A stretch of DNA of 25,695 bases from a bacterium (GTDB lineage Bacteria > UBA9089 > UBA9088), in NCBI GenBank assembly GCA_040756715.1, contig JBFLYE010000186.1, positions 1 to 25,695 on the forward strand, read 5' to 3'. The notes beneath the pieces are model-generated. The model did not search any database. It saw nothing but the letters and a program-made list of their open reading frames with translations, and had not been told where the DNA came from. Positions 38 through 18,507 of this stretch are shown here, one piece after another; the stretch's first letter is position 1, and each line of letters begins with the position of its first letter. The position numbers were made by a program, and so were the translations under genes.

Positions 38-65
38 TTCAAAATTCAAAATTTAGAATTCAAAA
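38..65. repeat. Heptamer tandem array TTCAAAA-TTCAAAA-TTTAGAA-TTCAAAA
   Basis: Read directly: four 7-bp units, three identical, in the non-coding region upstream of prs. Confidence 0.8.
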
Positions 66-142
66 TTTCTTAAAAGGTGGATGAATTTTTAACAGATAAA
101 CACACCCTATCTATTTTTGCACTAAGTGATGGAAGATACTAT

Positions 143-164
143 AGCTAAACACGTACAAATATTT
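143..164. repeat. Copy of the dispersed TGTTTAGC-core element
   Basis: AGCTAAACACGTACAAATATTT matches 3653-3674 (AGCTAAACACATACAAAAATTT) at 20/22 positions. Confidence 0.75.
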
Positions 165-234
165 GAGATAAAAAAGGGTTTTAAGAAAAAGGAGAAATTC
201 TTGACATAACAAAAGGACCTTCAAAATTAAAACC

Positions 235-264
235 TTGACTTTGAAGAAGGGAATTTATTAAAAT
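235..264 (+). promoter_or_regulatory. Putative sigma70 promoter for prs operon
   Basis: TTGACT (235-240), 18 nt, TAAAAT (259-264); ATG at 274 with no Shine-Dalgarno. Confidence 0.5.
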
Positions 265-273
265 TTTCTCCTT

Positions 274-1203
274 ATGGAAAATATAAGGATTTTTTCTGGA
301 AGGGCAAATAAGCCATTGGCAGAGGAGATAAGCAGCTATCTTGGAATTCCCCTTTCAGAGATAGAGGTATCAGATTTTGCAGATGGTGAGACATATGTAA
401 AGATAAAGGAAAATGTAAGGGGTGCTGATGTATATGTAATTCAGCCAACCTCGCCTCCTACAAATGCAAATCTTATGGAGCTTTTAATTATCATAGATGC
501 CCTAAAGAGGTCTTCTGCAAGAAGAATTACCGCGGTTATCCCATATTTTGGCTATGGAAGGCAGGATAGAAAGGTTGAGCCAAGGGTTCCTATTACATCA
601 AAGCTTGCCGCAAATCTTATTACCACAGCGGGTGCCTCAAGGATATTAACCATGGATTTACATGCAGGACAGATTCAAGGCTTTTTTGACATTCCCGTAG
701 ACCATCTTTTTTCATCCCCTATTATTATTGAATATCTCAAGAAAAAATCTGATGAACTTGTAATTGTCTCACCCGATACAGGTGGTGTTGAAAGGGCAAG
801 GGCAATTGCAAAGAGGCTTGATGCAGGGCTAGGCATTATTGATAAAAGGAGGCCAGAGAAGAATAAATCAGAGGTTTTAAATGTGATTGGTGATGTTTCT
901 TCTAAAAATGTTGTTATCTTTGATGATTTAATTGATACAGGAGGAACCGTGGTAAATGCAGCATCTGCTCTGAAAAAAGCAGGAGCTATCTCTGTCTGTT
1001 GTGCGGTTACCCATCCTATTCTTTCGGGGAGAGCACAGGAAAGATTGGAAGGAGGAGAGATAGAAGAGGTTATTGTTTGTAATACAATTCCTATTAAGAA
1101 GCTAAAATGCAAAAAGATAAGGGTTTTATCGGTGGCAAGGCTTTTTGGAGAGGCTATAAAGAGGACAAATGAGGAAACCTCTATAAGCTCCTTGTTTGAC
1201 TAA
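274..1203 (+). CDS. prs: Ribose-phosphate pyrophosphokinase
   Basis: Motifs FADGETYV, YFGYGRQDRK, DLHAGQIQGFF, VSPDTGG, DKRR, DDLIDTGGT; canonical prs-rplY-pth order. Confidence 0.98.
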   Translation: MENIRIFSGRANKPLAEEISSYLGIPLSEIEVSDFADGETYVKIKENVRGADVYVIQPTSPPTNANLMELLIIIDALKRSSARRITAVIPYFGYGRQDRKVEPRVPITSKLAANLITTAGASRILTMDLHAGQIQGFFDIPVDHLFSSPIIIEYLKKKSDELVIVSPDTGGVERARAIAKRLDAGLGIIDKRRPEKNKSEVLNVIGDVSSKNVVIFDDLIDTGGTVVNAASALKKAGAISVCCAVTHPILSGRAQERLEGGEIEEVIVCNTIPIKKLKCKKIRVLSVARLFGEAIKRTNEETSISSLFD

Positions 1204-1205
1204 TT

Positions 1206-1838
1206 ATGGAAGAATTAAAGGTAGAAGAAAGAAAAATAGGGACAAAAGGAGAGATTAACAAACTAAGGAGGAATGGATTTATTCCAGGGATTATATATGG
1301 ACAAGATAAACCAAACCTTCCCATCTATCTTTCAAAAAGGGAATTTCTCTCTATATTACACAAGGGAAAAAGCCCCCTATTTTCTCTGGTAATAGGAAGA
1401 AAAAAAGAATATGCAATTGTAAAGGAAAAGCAAATAAACCCTTTAAAGAATGAAATTATCCACCTAGATTTTATGAGGGTTGGCTTAAAAGAGAAGATAG
1501 AGGTTAAGGTTGGAATAAGGGCAATGGGAACTCCGCAAGGTGTAAAGGAGGGAGGGGTTCTTGAACAGCTTGTCTATGAACTTAATATAAAATGCCCTGC
1601 ACAAAGCATACCAGAGGCAATTGATGTGAATGTAGAAGACCTAAAAATAGGTGATATACTTCACATAAAAGATTTCCCGGAATATGAAGGAATAGAAATT
1701 CTTGAGGATAAAGAAAAAATTGTGTTTTCTGTTATTCCTCCAAAGGTAGAGGCACCACCTACAGAGATAAAAGAAGAATTAGCAGAGCCAGAGGTTATTA
1801 AGAAGGGGAAGAAAGAGGAAGAGGAAGTAGAAGAGTAA
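1206..1838 (+). CDS. rplY: 50S ribosomal protein L25 / Ctc (long form with acidic tail)
   Basis: LRRNGFIPGIIYG, HLDF, GVKEGGVLEQ, IPEAIDVNVEDLKIGD; synteny with prs and pth. Confidence 0.96.
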   Translation: MEELKVEERKIGTKGEINKLRRNGFIPGIIYGQDKPNLPIYLSKREFLSILHKGKSPLFSLVIGRKKEYAIVKEKQINPLKNEIIHLDFMRVGLKEKIEVKVGIRAMGTPQGVKEGGVLEQLVYELNIKCPAQSIPEAIDVNVEDLKIGDILHIKDFPEYEGIEILEDKEKIVFSVIPPKVEAPPTEIKEELAEPEVIKKGKKEEEEVEE

Positions 1839-16601: not shown

Positions 16602-16629
16602 TGACTCCAGGCTCCTGACTCTTGACTTA
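16602..16629 (-). repeat. Heptamer array of AGAGTCA family right after the flgC stop
   Basis: Sense (minus) strand TAAGTCA AGAGTCA GGAGCCT GGAGTCA; same word as the flgA array. Confidence 0.7.
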
Positions 16630-16630
16630 T

Positions 16631-17077
16631 TCATATTTCCAATGCCTTCATCATCATCTGCTTGGCATTTCTTGCTGCTGTAACATTTGCCTCATATGCA
16701 CGCGCGGCTGTGATTAAATTTATCATCTCTGTGGCAAGGTTTATATTTGGATATGCCACATAGCCATTTTCATCAGCATCTGGATGGCCTGGTTCATACT
16801 TTAACTTAGGAGGTGTTTTATCCTCCTCTATCCTTAAAACTCTGACGCCATTACCCGGTTCAATGGTTATGGGAGGCTTAATAAATGGCAGGTTGAATAA
16901 TGGCTCTTGTCTTCTTGGTGTAAATATGGGAAATCTCCTTTTGTATGGACCTCCCTCAGGTGTCCTTGTTGTATTGGCATTGGCAATGTTTTCTGAGATA
17001 ATATCCATCCTTAATTTCTCAGCCGACATTCCAGATGCCGATGCATCTATTCCCCTAAACAATCCACCGGTTAACAT
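16631..17077 (-). CDS. flgC: Flagellar basal-body rod protein FlgC
   Basis: SASGMSAEKLRMDIISENIANANTTRT, GPYKRR, YEPGHPDAD, YPNINL, RAYEAN. Confidence 0.97.
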   Translation of the reverse strand: MLTGGLFRGIDASASGMSAEKLRMDIISENIANANTTRTPEGGPYKRRFPIFTPRRQEPLFNLPFIKPPITIEPGNGVRVLRIEEDKTPPKLKYEPGHPDADENGYVAYPNINLATEMINLITAARAYEANVTAARNAKQMMMKALEI

Positions 17078-17475
17078 TATCTCCCTCCTTGGGCAACCAG
17101 CTTAAGCAGGCTAAACTTCTTTGCCAGCCTGGTTGCTATTGCATTGTAATAAATTGCATTCTTTACTAGGTCTTCCATCTCTTTATCTATGTCAACATTA
17201 TTTCCATCATTCCTATATATTGTATCATTTTCTGTAATAATTCTGGAAGAATTTTCATTCTTTTCATAGGAAAATGGAATATGCTTTGGATTTAGCCTCT
17301 TTGCAGAGAGCTTGTTTTTCTTTAGAGCATCTTCAAAAACAACAGATTGCCTTTTAAAGCCTGGTGTATTCACATTGGCAATATTGTTTGAGATAACATT
17401 GTGCCTAAGTGTAGCAGAATCTAGCCCTTTCTTTGCCAGCTCAATTGTTTTTGCAGATAAACTATCAATAAACAT
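17077..17475 (-). CDS. flgB: Flagellar basal-body rod protein FlgB
   Basis: RHNVISNNIANVNTPGFK, DGNNVDIDKEM; TAATG overlap with flgC. Confidence 0.96.
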   Translation of the reverse strand: MFIDSLSAKTIELAKKGLDSATLRHNVISNNIANVNTPGFKRQSVVFEDALKKNKLSAKRLNPKHIPFSYEKNENSSRIITENDTIYRNDGNNVDIDKEMEDLVKNAIYYNAIATRLAKKFSLLKLVAQGGR

Positions 17476-17485
17476 TTCATCTTAT

Positions 17486-17513
17486 ATATCGGCAATTTTC
17501 CCCTATTACTTGA
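17486..17513 (-). promoter_or_regulatory. Putative sigma28 promoter of flgB-flgC-fliE
   Basis: TCAAG (17513-17509), 15 nt, GCCGATAT (17493-17486). Confidence 0.72.
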
Positions 17514-17538
17514 CATAAATTTTTAAAGGCTTTAAAAT
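17510..17538 (+). promoter_or_regulatory. Putative sigma70 promoter for queA operon (predicts leaderless mRNA)
   Basis: TTGACA (17510-17515), 17 nt, TAAAAT (17533-17538); ATG at 17545, no SD. Confidence 0.7.
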
Positions 17539-17544
17539 TTTTTT

Positions 17545-18507
17545 ATGAATCTTGGTGATTTCTCTTATTCCCTTCCCCGCTCTTTTATTGCCCAGGAGCC
17601 AATAAAAGAAAGGGGGAAATGTAAGATGCTTTTCTTTGATAAAAAAAGGCAAAAAATAGAGCATCTTAAATTCTTTGATATTGTAAATATTCTCTCTCCC
17701 AAAGACTCTCTTGTGCTTAATAAAACAAAGGTATTTCCTGCAAGGCTTATTAAAGATGGAATAGACATCCTTTTGATAAGAGAAAAAGAAAAGAATATCT
17801 GGGAGATATTAGCAAAGCCAAGAAAGAAAATAAAAGAGGGAAAAATCCTTGATTTTGGAATCCTTAAAGGAGAAATTATCTCTCCCTCTCTTATCAAATT
17901 CAATGGCAATGGGAATTTATTTTCTATCCTGGAAAGAATAGGAAAAACGCCCCTTCCTCCCTATATAAAAAGAGAGCCGAATTGTGAAGATAAGATTTAT
18001 TATCAAACTGTATATGCAAAAGATTTGGGTTCAATCGCCGCACCCACTGCCGGCCTTCATTTTACCGATGAGATTCTTTTAAAATTAAAGGAAAATGGAA
18101 TTTCTATAGCCTACCTTACCCTCCATATCGGACTTGGCACATTTAAGCCGGTCCGCTGCAGCGATATTAGGGAACATAGGATGGATAGGGAATATGTAAG
18201 GATAGAGGAAAAAATCCCTGAAGATAAAAGAATAATCGCCTGCGGAACATCGGTGGTAAGAGCATTAGAGTCAGGAGGAAGAGATCAGAAGTTAGGAGTC
18301 GGATTTTGGACAGAGTTATTTATTTACCCTGGGTTTAGATTTAAGATAATCTCTGGGTTGCTTACAAATTTTCACCTTCCTAAAAACCCTCCTTTTATTA
18401 TGACCTCTGCATTTGTTGGCTTGGAGAAACTAAAGGAAATTTATGAAATAGCAATTGAAAAGAATTATAGATTTGGAAGCTATGGAGATTGTATGATTGT
18501 TCTATGA
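17545..18507 (+). CDS. queA: S-adenosylmethionine:tRNA ribosyltransferase-isomerase
   Basis: IAQEP, LNKTKVFPARL, PLPPYIKR, YQTVYA, GSIAAPTAGLHFT, TLHIGLGTFKPV, LFIYPG, TNFHLP, YRFGSYGD. Confidence 0.97.
   Translation: MNLGDFSYSLPRSFIAQEPIKERGKCKMLFFDKKRQKIEHLKFFDIVNILSPKDSLVLNKTKVFPARLIKDGIDILLIREKEKNIWEILAKPRKKIKEGKILDFGILKGEIISPSLIKFNGNGNLFSILERIGKTPLPPYIKREPNCEDKIYYQTVYAKDLGSIAAPTAGLHFTDEILLKLKENGISIAYLTLHIGLGTFKPVRCSDIREHRMDREYVRIEEKIPEDKRIIACGTSVVRALESGGRDQKLGVGFWTELFIYPGFRFKIISGLLTNFHLPKNPPFIMTSAFVGLEKLKEIYEIAIEKNYRFGSYGDCMIVL
18267..18301 (+). repeat. Degenerate AGAGTCA-family heptamer array inside queA
   Basis: AGAGTCA GGAGGAA GAGATCA GAAGTTA GGAGTCG; first and last units are identical to units of the flgA array. 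Confidence 0.5.

Follow-up and report, generated by a model that had tools for sequence, protein, structure and literature searches.

Why do short tandem arrays with a unit of seven nucleotides, spelled in many different words, recur at the gene boundaries of a single stretch of bacterial DNA? The stretch considered here (the window, 25,695 nucleotides) is contig C186 (JBFLYE010000186.1) of a metagenome-assembled genome (MAG), G000. An initial annotation of the window had taken the words to be unrelated, and had ascribed their common period to one generating or selecting process rather than to independent slippage accidents. Our analysis favours, with a probability of about 0.68, heptanucleotide microsatellites of the kind called long simple sequence repeats (LSSR) or short tandemly repeated repetitive sequences (STRR), which would be driven by slippage and homogenised at their sites, with occasional copying from locus to locus and with selection acting as a filter. 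The repeats of G000 belong to an already known class; what is new is the lineage, and what is unusual is the extent of their translation.

The genome of 1.55 Mb has 37% GC, consists of 218 contigs and is 96% complete. It contains flagellar basal-body genes and a sorting domain of the type IX secretion system (T9SS) type, groups with 24 other species, and has UBA9088 as its nearest record; a cyanobacterial host is very unlikely. Genes were called with our own procedure based on open reading frames (ORFs), which yielded 1,513 genes covering 87.6% of the genome; as the longest starts were used, part of the arrays described below as N-terminal may actually sit in 5' leaders. Arrays were detected by Tandem Repeats Finder (TRF), and counts of exact runs were set against three third-order Markov shuffles. 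The set under study comprises the 123 period-7 arrays with TRF score 40 or more that do not belong to the miniature inverted-repeat transposable element (MITE) described below. For comparison, we used two sister species, G001 and G002, whose flanking regions are about 82-97% identical to those of G000, and G003, a family-level relative from the next genus.

Excess, vocabulary and placement of the arrays

Genome-wide, TRF reported 565 rows with period 7, compared with 74 rows with period 6 and 192 rows with period 8. There are 45 exact runs with three or more copies of a 7-nt unit, and 12, 2, 10 and 0 such runs for periods 5, 6, 8 and 9, respectively. The three shuffles contain no such runs with period 7 or 8. 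The period-specific scan thus bears out the enrichment of period 7 suggested in the initial annotation. The exact runs with periods 2-4 show no excess genome-wide, their counts matching those in the shuffles. With head-to-tail copies beyond chance and a favoured period of 7, the arrays are heptanucleotide LSSR, or microsatellites, and a minority are octanucleotide microsatellites.

Loss of mismatch repair was considered as a cause of the excess and rejected. MutS (PF00488, MutS_V), MutL (PF08676, MutL_C) and NucS (PF01939) were not found in the 96%-complete G000, and across the phylum MutS is missing from all small-genome families (f1, f2, f4, f5 and f6) and present in f3, f7 and f8. However, the array counts do not follow MutS: G012 and G007 have both MutS and many arrays, and G009 and G010 have neither. 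The lack of excess of repeats with units of 2-4 nt in G000 also counts against this cause.

The 123 arrays share 43 canonical words. Common words are AATGCGG/AGTGCGG, GAGTCAG/GAGTCGG/GAGTCTG/GAGTCAA/GGGTCAG/AAGTCAA, AAATGCA, AAATTGC/AAATTGT and AAATCCG. Steps of one substitution link 36 of the 43 words, found in 114 arrays, into a single network, compared with 8-23 words in the largest network of random genomic heptamer sets. The view that the words are unrelated is refuted by this network, as well as by the in-phase change of words at orthologous arrays, such as that from GCGGAAT to GCAAATT in the MnmG gene (see below).

The arrays are also of a standard size. Among perfect arrays, lengths of 30-34 bp (four units and a partial unit) prevail, and lengths of 21-29 bp are rare. 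This mode is sharpest for ORF-embedded arrays; the few perfect intergenic arrays range over 22-33 bp. In octamer arrays the copy number is 4.2-4.8. Only 12 of the 123 arrays contain a G3 or C3 tract, and the words GGGAATC and GGGGATT are absent from the genome. Because such tracts are so few, G-quadruplexes were ruled out as the cause of the four-unit mode in this genome.

Intergenic arrays (46 of 123 observed, 14.8 expected) and N-terminal arrays, that is, those within the first 40 codons (26-27 observed, 14 expected), are over-represented, and arrays in the interior of ORFs are under-represented (46 observed, 87.5 expected). Over the 123 arrays this deviation is highly significant (chi-square 98.6, p = 3e-21), which confirms the initially noted enrichment at gene boundaries. 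However, the description of the arrays as boundary elements covers only a part of them, as 59% lie within longest-start ORFs and 37% lie deep inside ORFs, where they are read in frame (for example, as KGQGSRVKGQ). Since the latter arrays are situated in ORFs and translated, the boundary placement points to a filter and not to targeting.

Pfam domains flank the arrays on either side in MnmG, LeuRS, ProRS, a Val/Ile-type tRNA synthetase, AlaRS, Mfd, UvrD and other proteins, including a formate-dehydrogenase-like protein and a double-ATPase activase with two arrays. The LeuRS array lies in the editing domain, and the Val/Ile-type tRNA synthetase carries two arrays as well. QueA is also among the ORFs with an in-frame array. 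ORF-embedded arrays run on the stop-free strand, and in 27 arrays the word is stop-free only in the sense orientation. Three AGAGTCA arrays of the window had been noted to be on the coding strand; this is confirmed, and the bias arises because the complement TGACTCT contains TGA.

One ORF (L134, G000:C119:22188-24062) encodes FdhD (residues 77-297) and the quinolinate synthase NadA (residues 313-606) in one frame, with an AAGTCAG-type array in between. Either the two genes are truly fused, or their junction lacks a stop codon.

One possibility is that the arrays are cis-regulatory sites, as many of them abut start codons. A protein binding single-stranded nucleic acids, of the S1, Csp or CsrA type, would then bind the mRNA, each domain or monomer occupying one unit, and tune translation of the downstream gene. 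The same number of about 4.5 units for 7-nt and 8-nt units alike, the recurrence of the RRGTCRR word family across the phylum, and the presence of GGA or Shine-Dalgarno-like motifs on the sense strand of 11 of 26 N-terminal arrays, compared with the 12% background, are consistent with this role, and it was proposed for the TAACTGA repeats of Beggiatoaceae (PMC4679880). However, the arrays within ORFs (37%) include those in tRNA synthetases, the same gene has different words in sister species, certain orthologous junctions have no array, many of the words have no motif in common, and the sense bias is accounted for by stop codons. Thus a regulatory role of the arrays is improbable. Binding of CsrA to the GGA-bearing arrays was rejected as well: a search with PF02599 found no CsrA in the 96%-complete G000.

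Arrays in flagellar signal peptides

The window contains the housekeeping genes prs, rplY, pth, an EtfA-like gene, guaA, guaB, dxs, dxr, queA and others, and the flagellar basal-body genes flgF, flgG, flgA, flgH, flgI, flgJ, fliM, fliE, flgC, flgB and flgM. TRF reported 26 rows in the window, ten of which have period 7 (36-67, 2392-2422, 6758-6777, 9080-9103, 10750-10777, 10779-10798, 11435-11466, 11474-11520, 12052-12083, 12094-12125). All arrays listed in the initial annotation were found in place, with qualifications for those at 38-65, 6747-6777, 16602-16629 and 18267-18301. The following arrays lie at the starts of flgA, flgH and flgI:

10742-10777, plus strand: FlgA signal peptide, polar n-region, (GGAGTCG/AGAGTCA) x5
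10778-10798, plus strand: FlgA signal peptide, part of the hydrophobic core (AIGYWLF), (GGCTATT) x3
11435-11466, plus strand: flgH start, (AATGCGG) x4.6, with an ATG in each unit and hence in all three frames
11474-11520, plus strand: FlgH signal peptide, hydrophobic core CCLLSVVCCLLSVVC, (CTGTTGT) x6.7
12052-12083, plus strand: flgI start, (AATGCGG) x4.6 with one AGTGTGG unit, flank GGAATGTAARGGC common with the flgH array
12094-12125, plus strand: FlgI signal peptide, hydrophobic core (KAIGYWLLAIG), (GGCTATT) x4.6

All three N-termini combine a first array, polar or basic, with a second, hydrophobic one. The orthologues of these flagellar proteins in G003 and at the order level have ordinary short signal peptides. 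The sister species have arrays with other words or copy numbers. At the polar site of FlgA, G002 contains GGAGTCA x4 and G001 contains a longer mixed array; at the hydrophobic site, the word is the same in G002 and is replaced by (CTACCTT) x4.6 in G001. Both species have (AAAATGC) x4.7 at the flgH start and (CTGTCTA) x4.3 in the FlgH hydrophobic core. At the flgI start, G002 has (AAAGTCA) x4.7, G001 has about 35 units and G003 has no array; the units in both sister species are without ATG. The FlgI core of G001 is made of the same word as in G000 (given also as GCTATTG), and that of G002 is a non-repeat sequence, VLIFILIGAGIF.

In FlgI, no start codon downstream of the array leaves the hydrophobic core, or signal peptide. 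As there is no usable downstream start, the arrays would have to be translated for FlgI to be exported. Lipoprotein-like N-termini elsewhere in G000 are built in the same way, e.g. MKSQKLKVKSQKC...LVIVLGC and MNNCKLQIANLGFFITLSLALIVGC, with hydrophobic cores such as LLLSSLFSLLSS.

The long array at the flgI start of G001 (L032:3675-3975) consists of 17.7 mixed GAGTCAG-type units and 17 GACTCAA units preceding the FlgI hydrophobic core. Translation beginning at the first ATG would extend the N-terminus by about 85 residues. Possible interpretations of this array are a leader, an OFF state and a problem of assembly.

The consequences of slippage were modelled for flgH. The frame stays open after any unit change in the ATG-bearing array; for the hydrophobic array, two of the three frame classes stay open and one is OFF. 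Slips are therefore cheap in the start regions. Since 7 and 3 are coprime, the seven-residue cycle is identical in all three frames, and the same is seen in the flgH model.

Genes with such starts might be contingency loci, where slippage in copy number switches the gene on and off (phase variation), in particular FlgA, FlgH and FlgI. The model for this would be the CTCTT pentamers of Neisseria opa, which, as Stern et al. are said to have described, lie in the region coding for the signal peptide and serve as an on/off switch of a family of pathogen surface antigens. Similarly to opa, a non-triplet repeat in G000 codes for the hydrophobic part of a signal peptide, with the reading frame depending on the copy number. 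In favour of contingency loci, the unit length is no multiple of three, arrays are present in the 5' coding regions of surface and periplasmic proteins, one of the three frame classes of the flgH hydrophobic array is OFF, and the copy number varies widely between sister species, reaching 35 units in FlgI of G001. On the other hand, the G000 repeat class, unlike opa, is genome-wide: arrays are no less present in operon spacers, housekeeping genes and essential genes, and switching at such places would either be lethal or serve no purpose. Moreover, the flgH architecture buffers most slips, largely by means of the upstream ATG-bearing array. Phase variation may accompany the arrays at some genes as a by-product; it cannot be what they are generally for, and we regard contingency loci as an unlikely explanation of the repeat class.

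Turnover between relatives

Other features of the window are as follows:

2392-2422, plus strand: pth/EtfA-like junction, (AATGCAA) x4.4 including one AAGTCAA unit
6747-6777, no strand: guaB-guaA spacer, one GCACCAG unit and then inverted (TGGTGCC) x2.9
9080-9103, plus strand: spacer between a response-regulator gene and flgF, weak (CATTTTA) x3.3 with TRF score 32
16602-16629, minus strand: flgC-fliE spacer, decayed (AGAGTCA) x4, sense to both genes
18267-18301, plus strand: queA interior, decayed (AGAGTCA) x5, read in frame as ESGGRDQKLGVG
1-143, plus strand: right half of a MITE, the TTCAAAA array (36-67) being one of its heptamer arms

Orthologous junctions were compared in the relatives, as the initial annotation had proposed. 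Arrays were found at the same sites with differences in word or copy number, or were absent. Over ten sites of the window, G001 and G002 contain the same word as G000, a different word, another copy number or no array, and G003 has no arrays at the assessable sites.

The array at 2392-2422 encodes the C-terminal tail of peptidyl-tRNA hydrolase (NAKCKSQNAK followed by the stop codon); the real start of the EtfA-like gene follows shortly downstream. The corresponding junction contains a GAGTTAA/GAGTCAG-type array in G001 and no array in G002, and could not be aligned in G003. In the guaB-guaA spacer the initial annotation had listed a GCACCAG array. The repeat is present, but it is not a plain array, as one inverted unit is combined with 2.9 direct units. 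A role of this sequence as a hairpin or terminator was rejected, the RNA fold being unremarkable and no better than in shuffles (z = -1.8). The same spacer contains two long inverted GAGTCAA/TGACTCC arrays in G001, (GTTTTGA) x4.7 in G002, and 190 nt without repeats in G003. The weak array upstream of flgF was absent from the initial list.

The arrays at 16602-16629 and 18267-18301 are degenerate and fall under the TRF threshold. They are nevertheless real decayed arrays, since G001 has eight near-perfect units at the QueA site. The latter array lies in a product matching the Pfam family Queuosine_synth (residues 4-319), and the loop in G001 is longer than that in G000 by 21 nt, or 7 amino acids, which is exactly three units. 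In G002 the QueA array is decayed, and in G003 there is a non-repeat loop of similar length. The QueA array appears to have been seeded on the conserved Leu-Glu-Ser (LES) codons TTAGAGTCA. The flgC-fliE spacer has the same decayed array in G002, (AAATCCT/AAATCTT) x4.7 in G001, and no array in G003.

A period-9 array (GAAGGAAAA) x7.4, compatible with triplets, is situated between flgI and flgJ (13103-13169).

Words also change within essential genes. The MnmG array consists of GCGGAAT x4 in G000 and GCAAATT x4 in G002, in the same phase and with nearly the same length. The ProRS array has GGGTCAA in G000 and mixed GGGTCAG in G002. In LeuRS, the array is of the GGGGTCA type in G000 and a decayed GGAATCA-type array of identical total length (84 nt) in G003. 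Such in-phase change of words in essential genes is concerted evolution in place. In G002 (L148) the same LeuRS editing-domain loop contains, instead of the heptamer array of G000 (L135), the octamer GTCAGAGG x5, and is 12 nt longer. This suggests that octamer arrays may arise from heptamer ones by insertion of one base that then spreads.

In a paralogous family of membrane proteins with recurring ...LFILPL segments (G000 contigs C3, C44, C89, C197, C133 and C217), arrays lie at the same loop positions and differ in the word (GACTCCC, AAGGCTT, AAAATTC, CATTCCG and others). This family is the within-genome counterpart of word replacement between species.

At one place we observed an ectopic copy. 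In G001, the starts of flgA and flgI, about 1.5 kb apart, share, with 93% identity, a composite array of 116 nt that includes a spacer and variant units in an idiosyncratic order. Hence arrays are sometimes copied between loci. One could suggest that this is the general mode of their origin, with pre-formed cassettes of about 32 bp, mobile or transferred by conversion, being pasted into permissive sites from other arrays of the genome. This would explain the standard size and the small vocabulary, 43 words covering 123 arrays. The composite array of G001, the flank common to the flgH and flgI arrays of G000, the junction that has different words in sister species and none in one of them, and the LeuRS, MnmG and ProRS arrays, which replace the local sequence with little change in length, all fit such pasting. 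However, the arrays have no fixed ends, the start and end phases in the largest family (GAGTCAG) being scattered, and are not bounded by target duplications. The QueA array appears to be seeded on conserved codons of its own locus, the in-phase word changes fit homogenisation in place, and the only mobile element found, the MITE, is flanked by TA rather than by 7-bp duplications. The common end ...GGAAT(G) of AATGCGG arrays was considered as a sign of copy-and-paste with fixed ends and discarded as a chance product of AT-rich flanks. We therefore consider general pasting of cassettes unlikely.

The MITE is a separate source of period-7 arrays. A single element of about 240 bp contains 232 of the 356 period-7 arrays with score 40 or more. 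A BLAST search with one copy produced 250 hits with depth over 100, that is, more than 100 copies. The element has terminal inverted repeats TATAGTTAATTCC...GGAAGATACTATA, is flanked by TA on both ends in 32 of 32 full copies, and contains two inverted 32-bp heptamer arms with AATTCAA-type units. It is a MITE, as it is short, non-coding and high-copy, with terminal inverted repeats and constant TA flanks; its transposase partner was not searched for. The TTCAAAA array (38-65) of the initial annotation is thus a genuine period-7 array, but it belongs to a transposable element. The arms have lengths 32 bp (n = 159), 25 bp (n = 9) and 18 bp (n = 1), with no further indel sizes seen; hence the changes are of whole units and, in these imperfect arrays, are losses. 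The MITE constitutes about 1.7% of the genome. An origin of the arrays as 7-bp target duplications of the MITE was ruled out, as its flanks are TA.

Another dispersed hairpin motif, GTGTTTAGC...GCTAAACAC, occurs in the window at 144-156, 3650-3668, 5172-5197 and 13440-13510 and in many copies in G000-G002. One copy, GTTTAGCTAAAGCTAAAC, is located immediately after the stop codon of the Memo/AMMECR1 gene. Elsewhere the motif adjoins AATTGCA-type heptamer arrays and looks like a second MITE family.

Most contig ends fall within the MITE, which is a main cause of the fragmented assembly. Given the fragmentation of this MAG into 218 contigs, and arrays such as that of 35 units in G001, exceeding what short reads resolve well, one might suspect an artefact of short-read assembly or binning. 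However, the usual array of about 32 bp is far below the read length, arrays recur at orthologous sites of separately assembled genomes, and they keep long ORFs open. An artefact is thus highly improbable. Exact-protein look-up and one metagenome scan for strain variants found no near-identical contigs.

The pattern RRGTCRR x3 occurs in 22 of the 25 species genomes of the phylum. It is abundant in one distant family and in the genus of the window (53-140 hits), while others are rich in the reversed control pattern. The arrays are a trait of the whole lineage.

The metagenome scan, made with FlgI, retrieved only soil and peat metagenome contigs of 60-65% GC (L076-L127) from other phyla, with FlgI of about 40% identity. 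These contigs carry heptamer arrays of about 4.6 units near flagellar genes (AGGGAAC, ACTGACC, CAGTTCA, GAACTGT), directly after stop codons and just upstream of Shine-Dalgarno sites. As heptamer arrays are thus found in unrelated high-GC bacteria, the phenomenon is broad.

Slippage, selection and known repeat systems

We propose the following scheme. Whole units would be gained and lost through slipped-strand mispairing, the likely engine of the process. Slippage would keep homogenising each array, and its word would drift as a substitution appears and then spreads; composite arrays would now and then be copied between loci. Selection would probably serve as the filter. Firstly, arrays could be kept in spacers and at stop/start junctions, where a unit containing ATG offers a start in every frame. 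Secondly, they could be kept in signal peptides, where a basic stretch followed by a hydrophobic stretch suffices. Finally, they could be kept in protein loops and linkers, only on the stop-free strand and at frame-neutral lengths. In this way Lys/Arg-rich words would be retained in n-regions, hydrophobic words in h-regions and polar words in loops. Arrays in essential genes could be homogenised without frameshift via compensated slips, steps of three units or conversion. A single common process, as suggested in the initial annotation, indeed seems to be the economical explanation, but its opposition to slippage accidents is false: slippage is the simplest such process, as exemplified by the unit steps in the MITE and the three units in QueA.

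Several points weigh against slippage with selection as the complete explanation. Single-unit slips would frameshift essential ORFs, and the word differences between sister species would require frame-neutral homogenisation, which goes beyond plain slippage. Perfect arrays of 21-29 bp are rarer than those of 30-34 bp, and stepwise growth alone does not predict that. The small vocabulary, together with the word family recurring across the phylum, could indicate a sequence-specific factor or spread by copying. The scheme accounts for neither the 7-bp unit nor the preference for about four units, and the explanation by G-quadruplexes is inapplicable.

In view of these points, one could suggest a dedicated, sequence-independent process that keeps about four 7- or 8-nt units perfect, even in essential genes, and rewrites words between sister species at constant length. 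Frame-neutral homogenising or conversion, or a factor recognising the geometry of the array, might be responsible. We consider such a process unlikely. If it existed, the lineage would use the arrays as ready-made cassettes for building and rebuilding signal peptides and protein linkers, and the preference of the Xanthomonas and Nostoc arrays for four units, at present explained by G-quadruplexes, might have the same origin.

To our knowledge, the excess of heptamers in prokaryotes, known since 1990 (STRR) and 2007 (LSSR), has no accepted cause. The STRR of heterocystous cyanobacteria (Calothrix, Nostoc) comprise several heptamer words per genome, with canonical words CCCCAGT, TTGGTCA and CAACAGT, and form about 100 arrays, mostly near gene ends. 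G000 is similar in having several heptamer words and of the order of 100 arrays, mostly near gene ends. However, its words are AT-rich, its lineage is flagellated and very probably non-cyanobacterial, and neither arrays nor exact dimers of CCCCAGT, TTGGTCA or CAACAGT are present in the genome. The comparison with STRR made in the initial annotation is thus an apt analogy, but the genome contains no STRR word, and a prokaryote-wide excess of heptamers has already been described (Mrazek 2007, as summarised in later papers).

The arrays are closer to LSSR (Mrazek, Guo and Shah 2007). According to the available summaries of that survey, these repeats have units of 5-11 nt far beyond chance and a scattered phylogenetic distribution, polymerase slippage was proposed as the cause, and heptamers are the commonest class in genomes rich in such repeats (PMC4679880, PMC4692102). 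In that survey, a match of the 7-nt length to the polymerase contact was suggested, and the units in coding DNA were noted to be those divisible by three (as summarised in PMC4679880). In the same accounts non-triplet LSSR units are mainly non-coding, whereas in G000 most arrays lie in ORFs (59%, with 37% deep inside), essential enzymes included. The lineage of G000, an uncultivated phylum, is outside that survey as summarised.

Arrays of GGGAATC and GGGGA(T/C)T in Xanthomonas and Nostoc have 2-26 units, with a preference for four that was ascribed to G-quadruplexes (Rehm et al. 2015, PMC4692102). They form inverted pairs and lie within 50 bp of starts and stops (PMC4692102). The arrays of G000 share the four-unit preference, the inverted pairs, and the location near start and stop codons and between co-directional ORFs. 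Unlike them, the G000 arrays show the four-unit mode, octamers included, with very few G3 or C3 tracts, and the Xanthomonas and Nostoc repeats are under-represented in coding DNA.

The TAACTGA arrays of marine Beggiatoaceae, some cyanobacteria and Bacteroidetes (MacGregor 2015, PMC4679880) resemble those of G000 as heptamer arrays of 2-6 units situated just upstream of starts or overlapping stops, and in ORFs only on the stop-free strand. However, they are dominated by one word with related words rare, whereas G000 has 43 words; and their copies in ORFs are at protein ends or in hypothetical proteins, whereas those of G000 are inside tRNA synthetases. G000 contains neither arrays nor dimers of TAACTGA.

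Tandem repeats of Borg elements create disordered protein regions, and are described, in the part of that work considered here, as fast-evolving, independently arising, translated low-complexity segments (PMC9879509). These are located on archaeal extrachromosomal elements, whereas the G000 arrays are in a bacterial chromosome, and the likeness, drawn from the same part of the work, does not involve unit lengths. The G000 arrays differ from all these systems in the extent of in-frame translation, covering essential enzymes and signal peptides, and in the in-phase rewriting of words between sister species.

The four-unit mode in arrays unable to form G-quadruplexes weakens the only published explanation for this preference. 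Perfect arrays with different words at the same site of sister genomes are a natural series for estimating the rates of homogenisation and replacement. In practice, the MITE and the arrays together explain the fragmented assembly, and start codons, signal peptides and apparent gene fusions such as FdhD-NadA need care when genomes of this kind are annotated. Finally, as numerous arrays with non-triplet units are translated in frame within essential enzymes and signal peptides, the repeats of this lineage are a real source of new protein sequence and not spacer filler alone.

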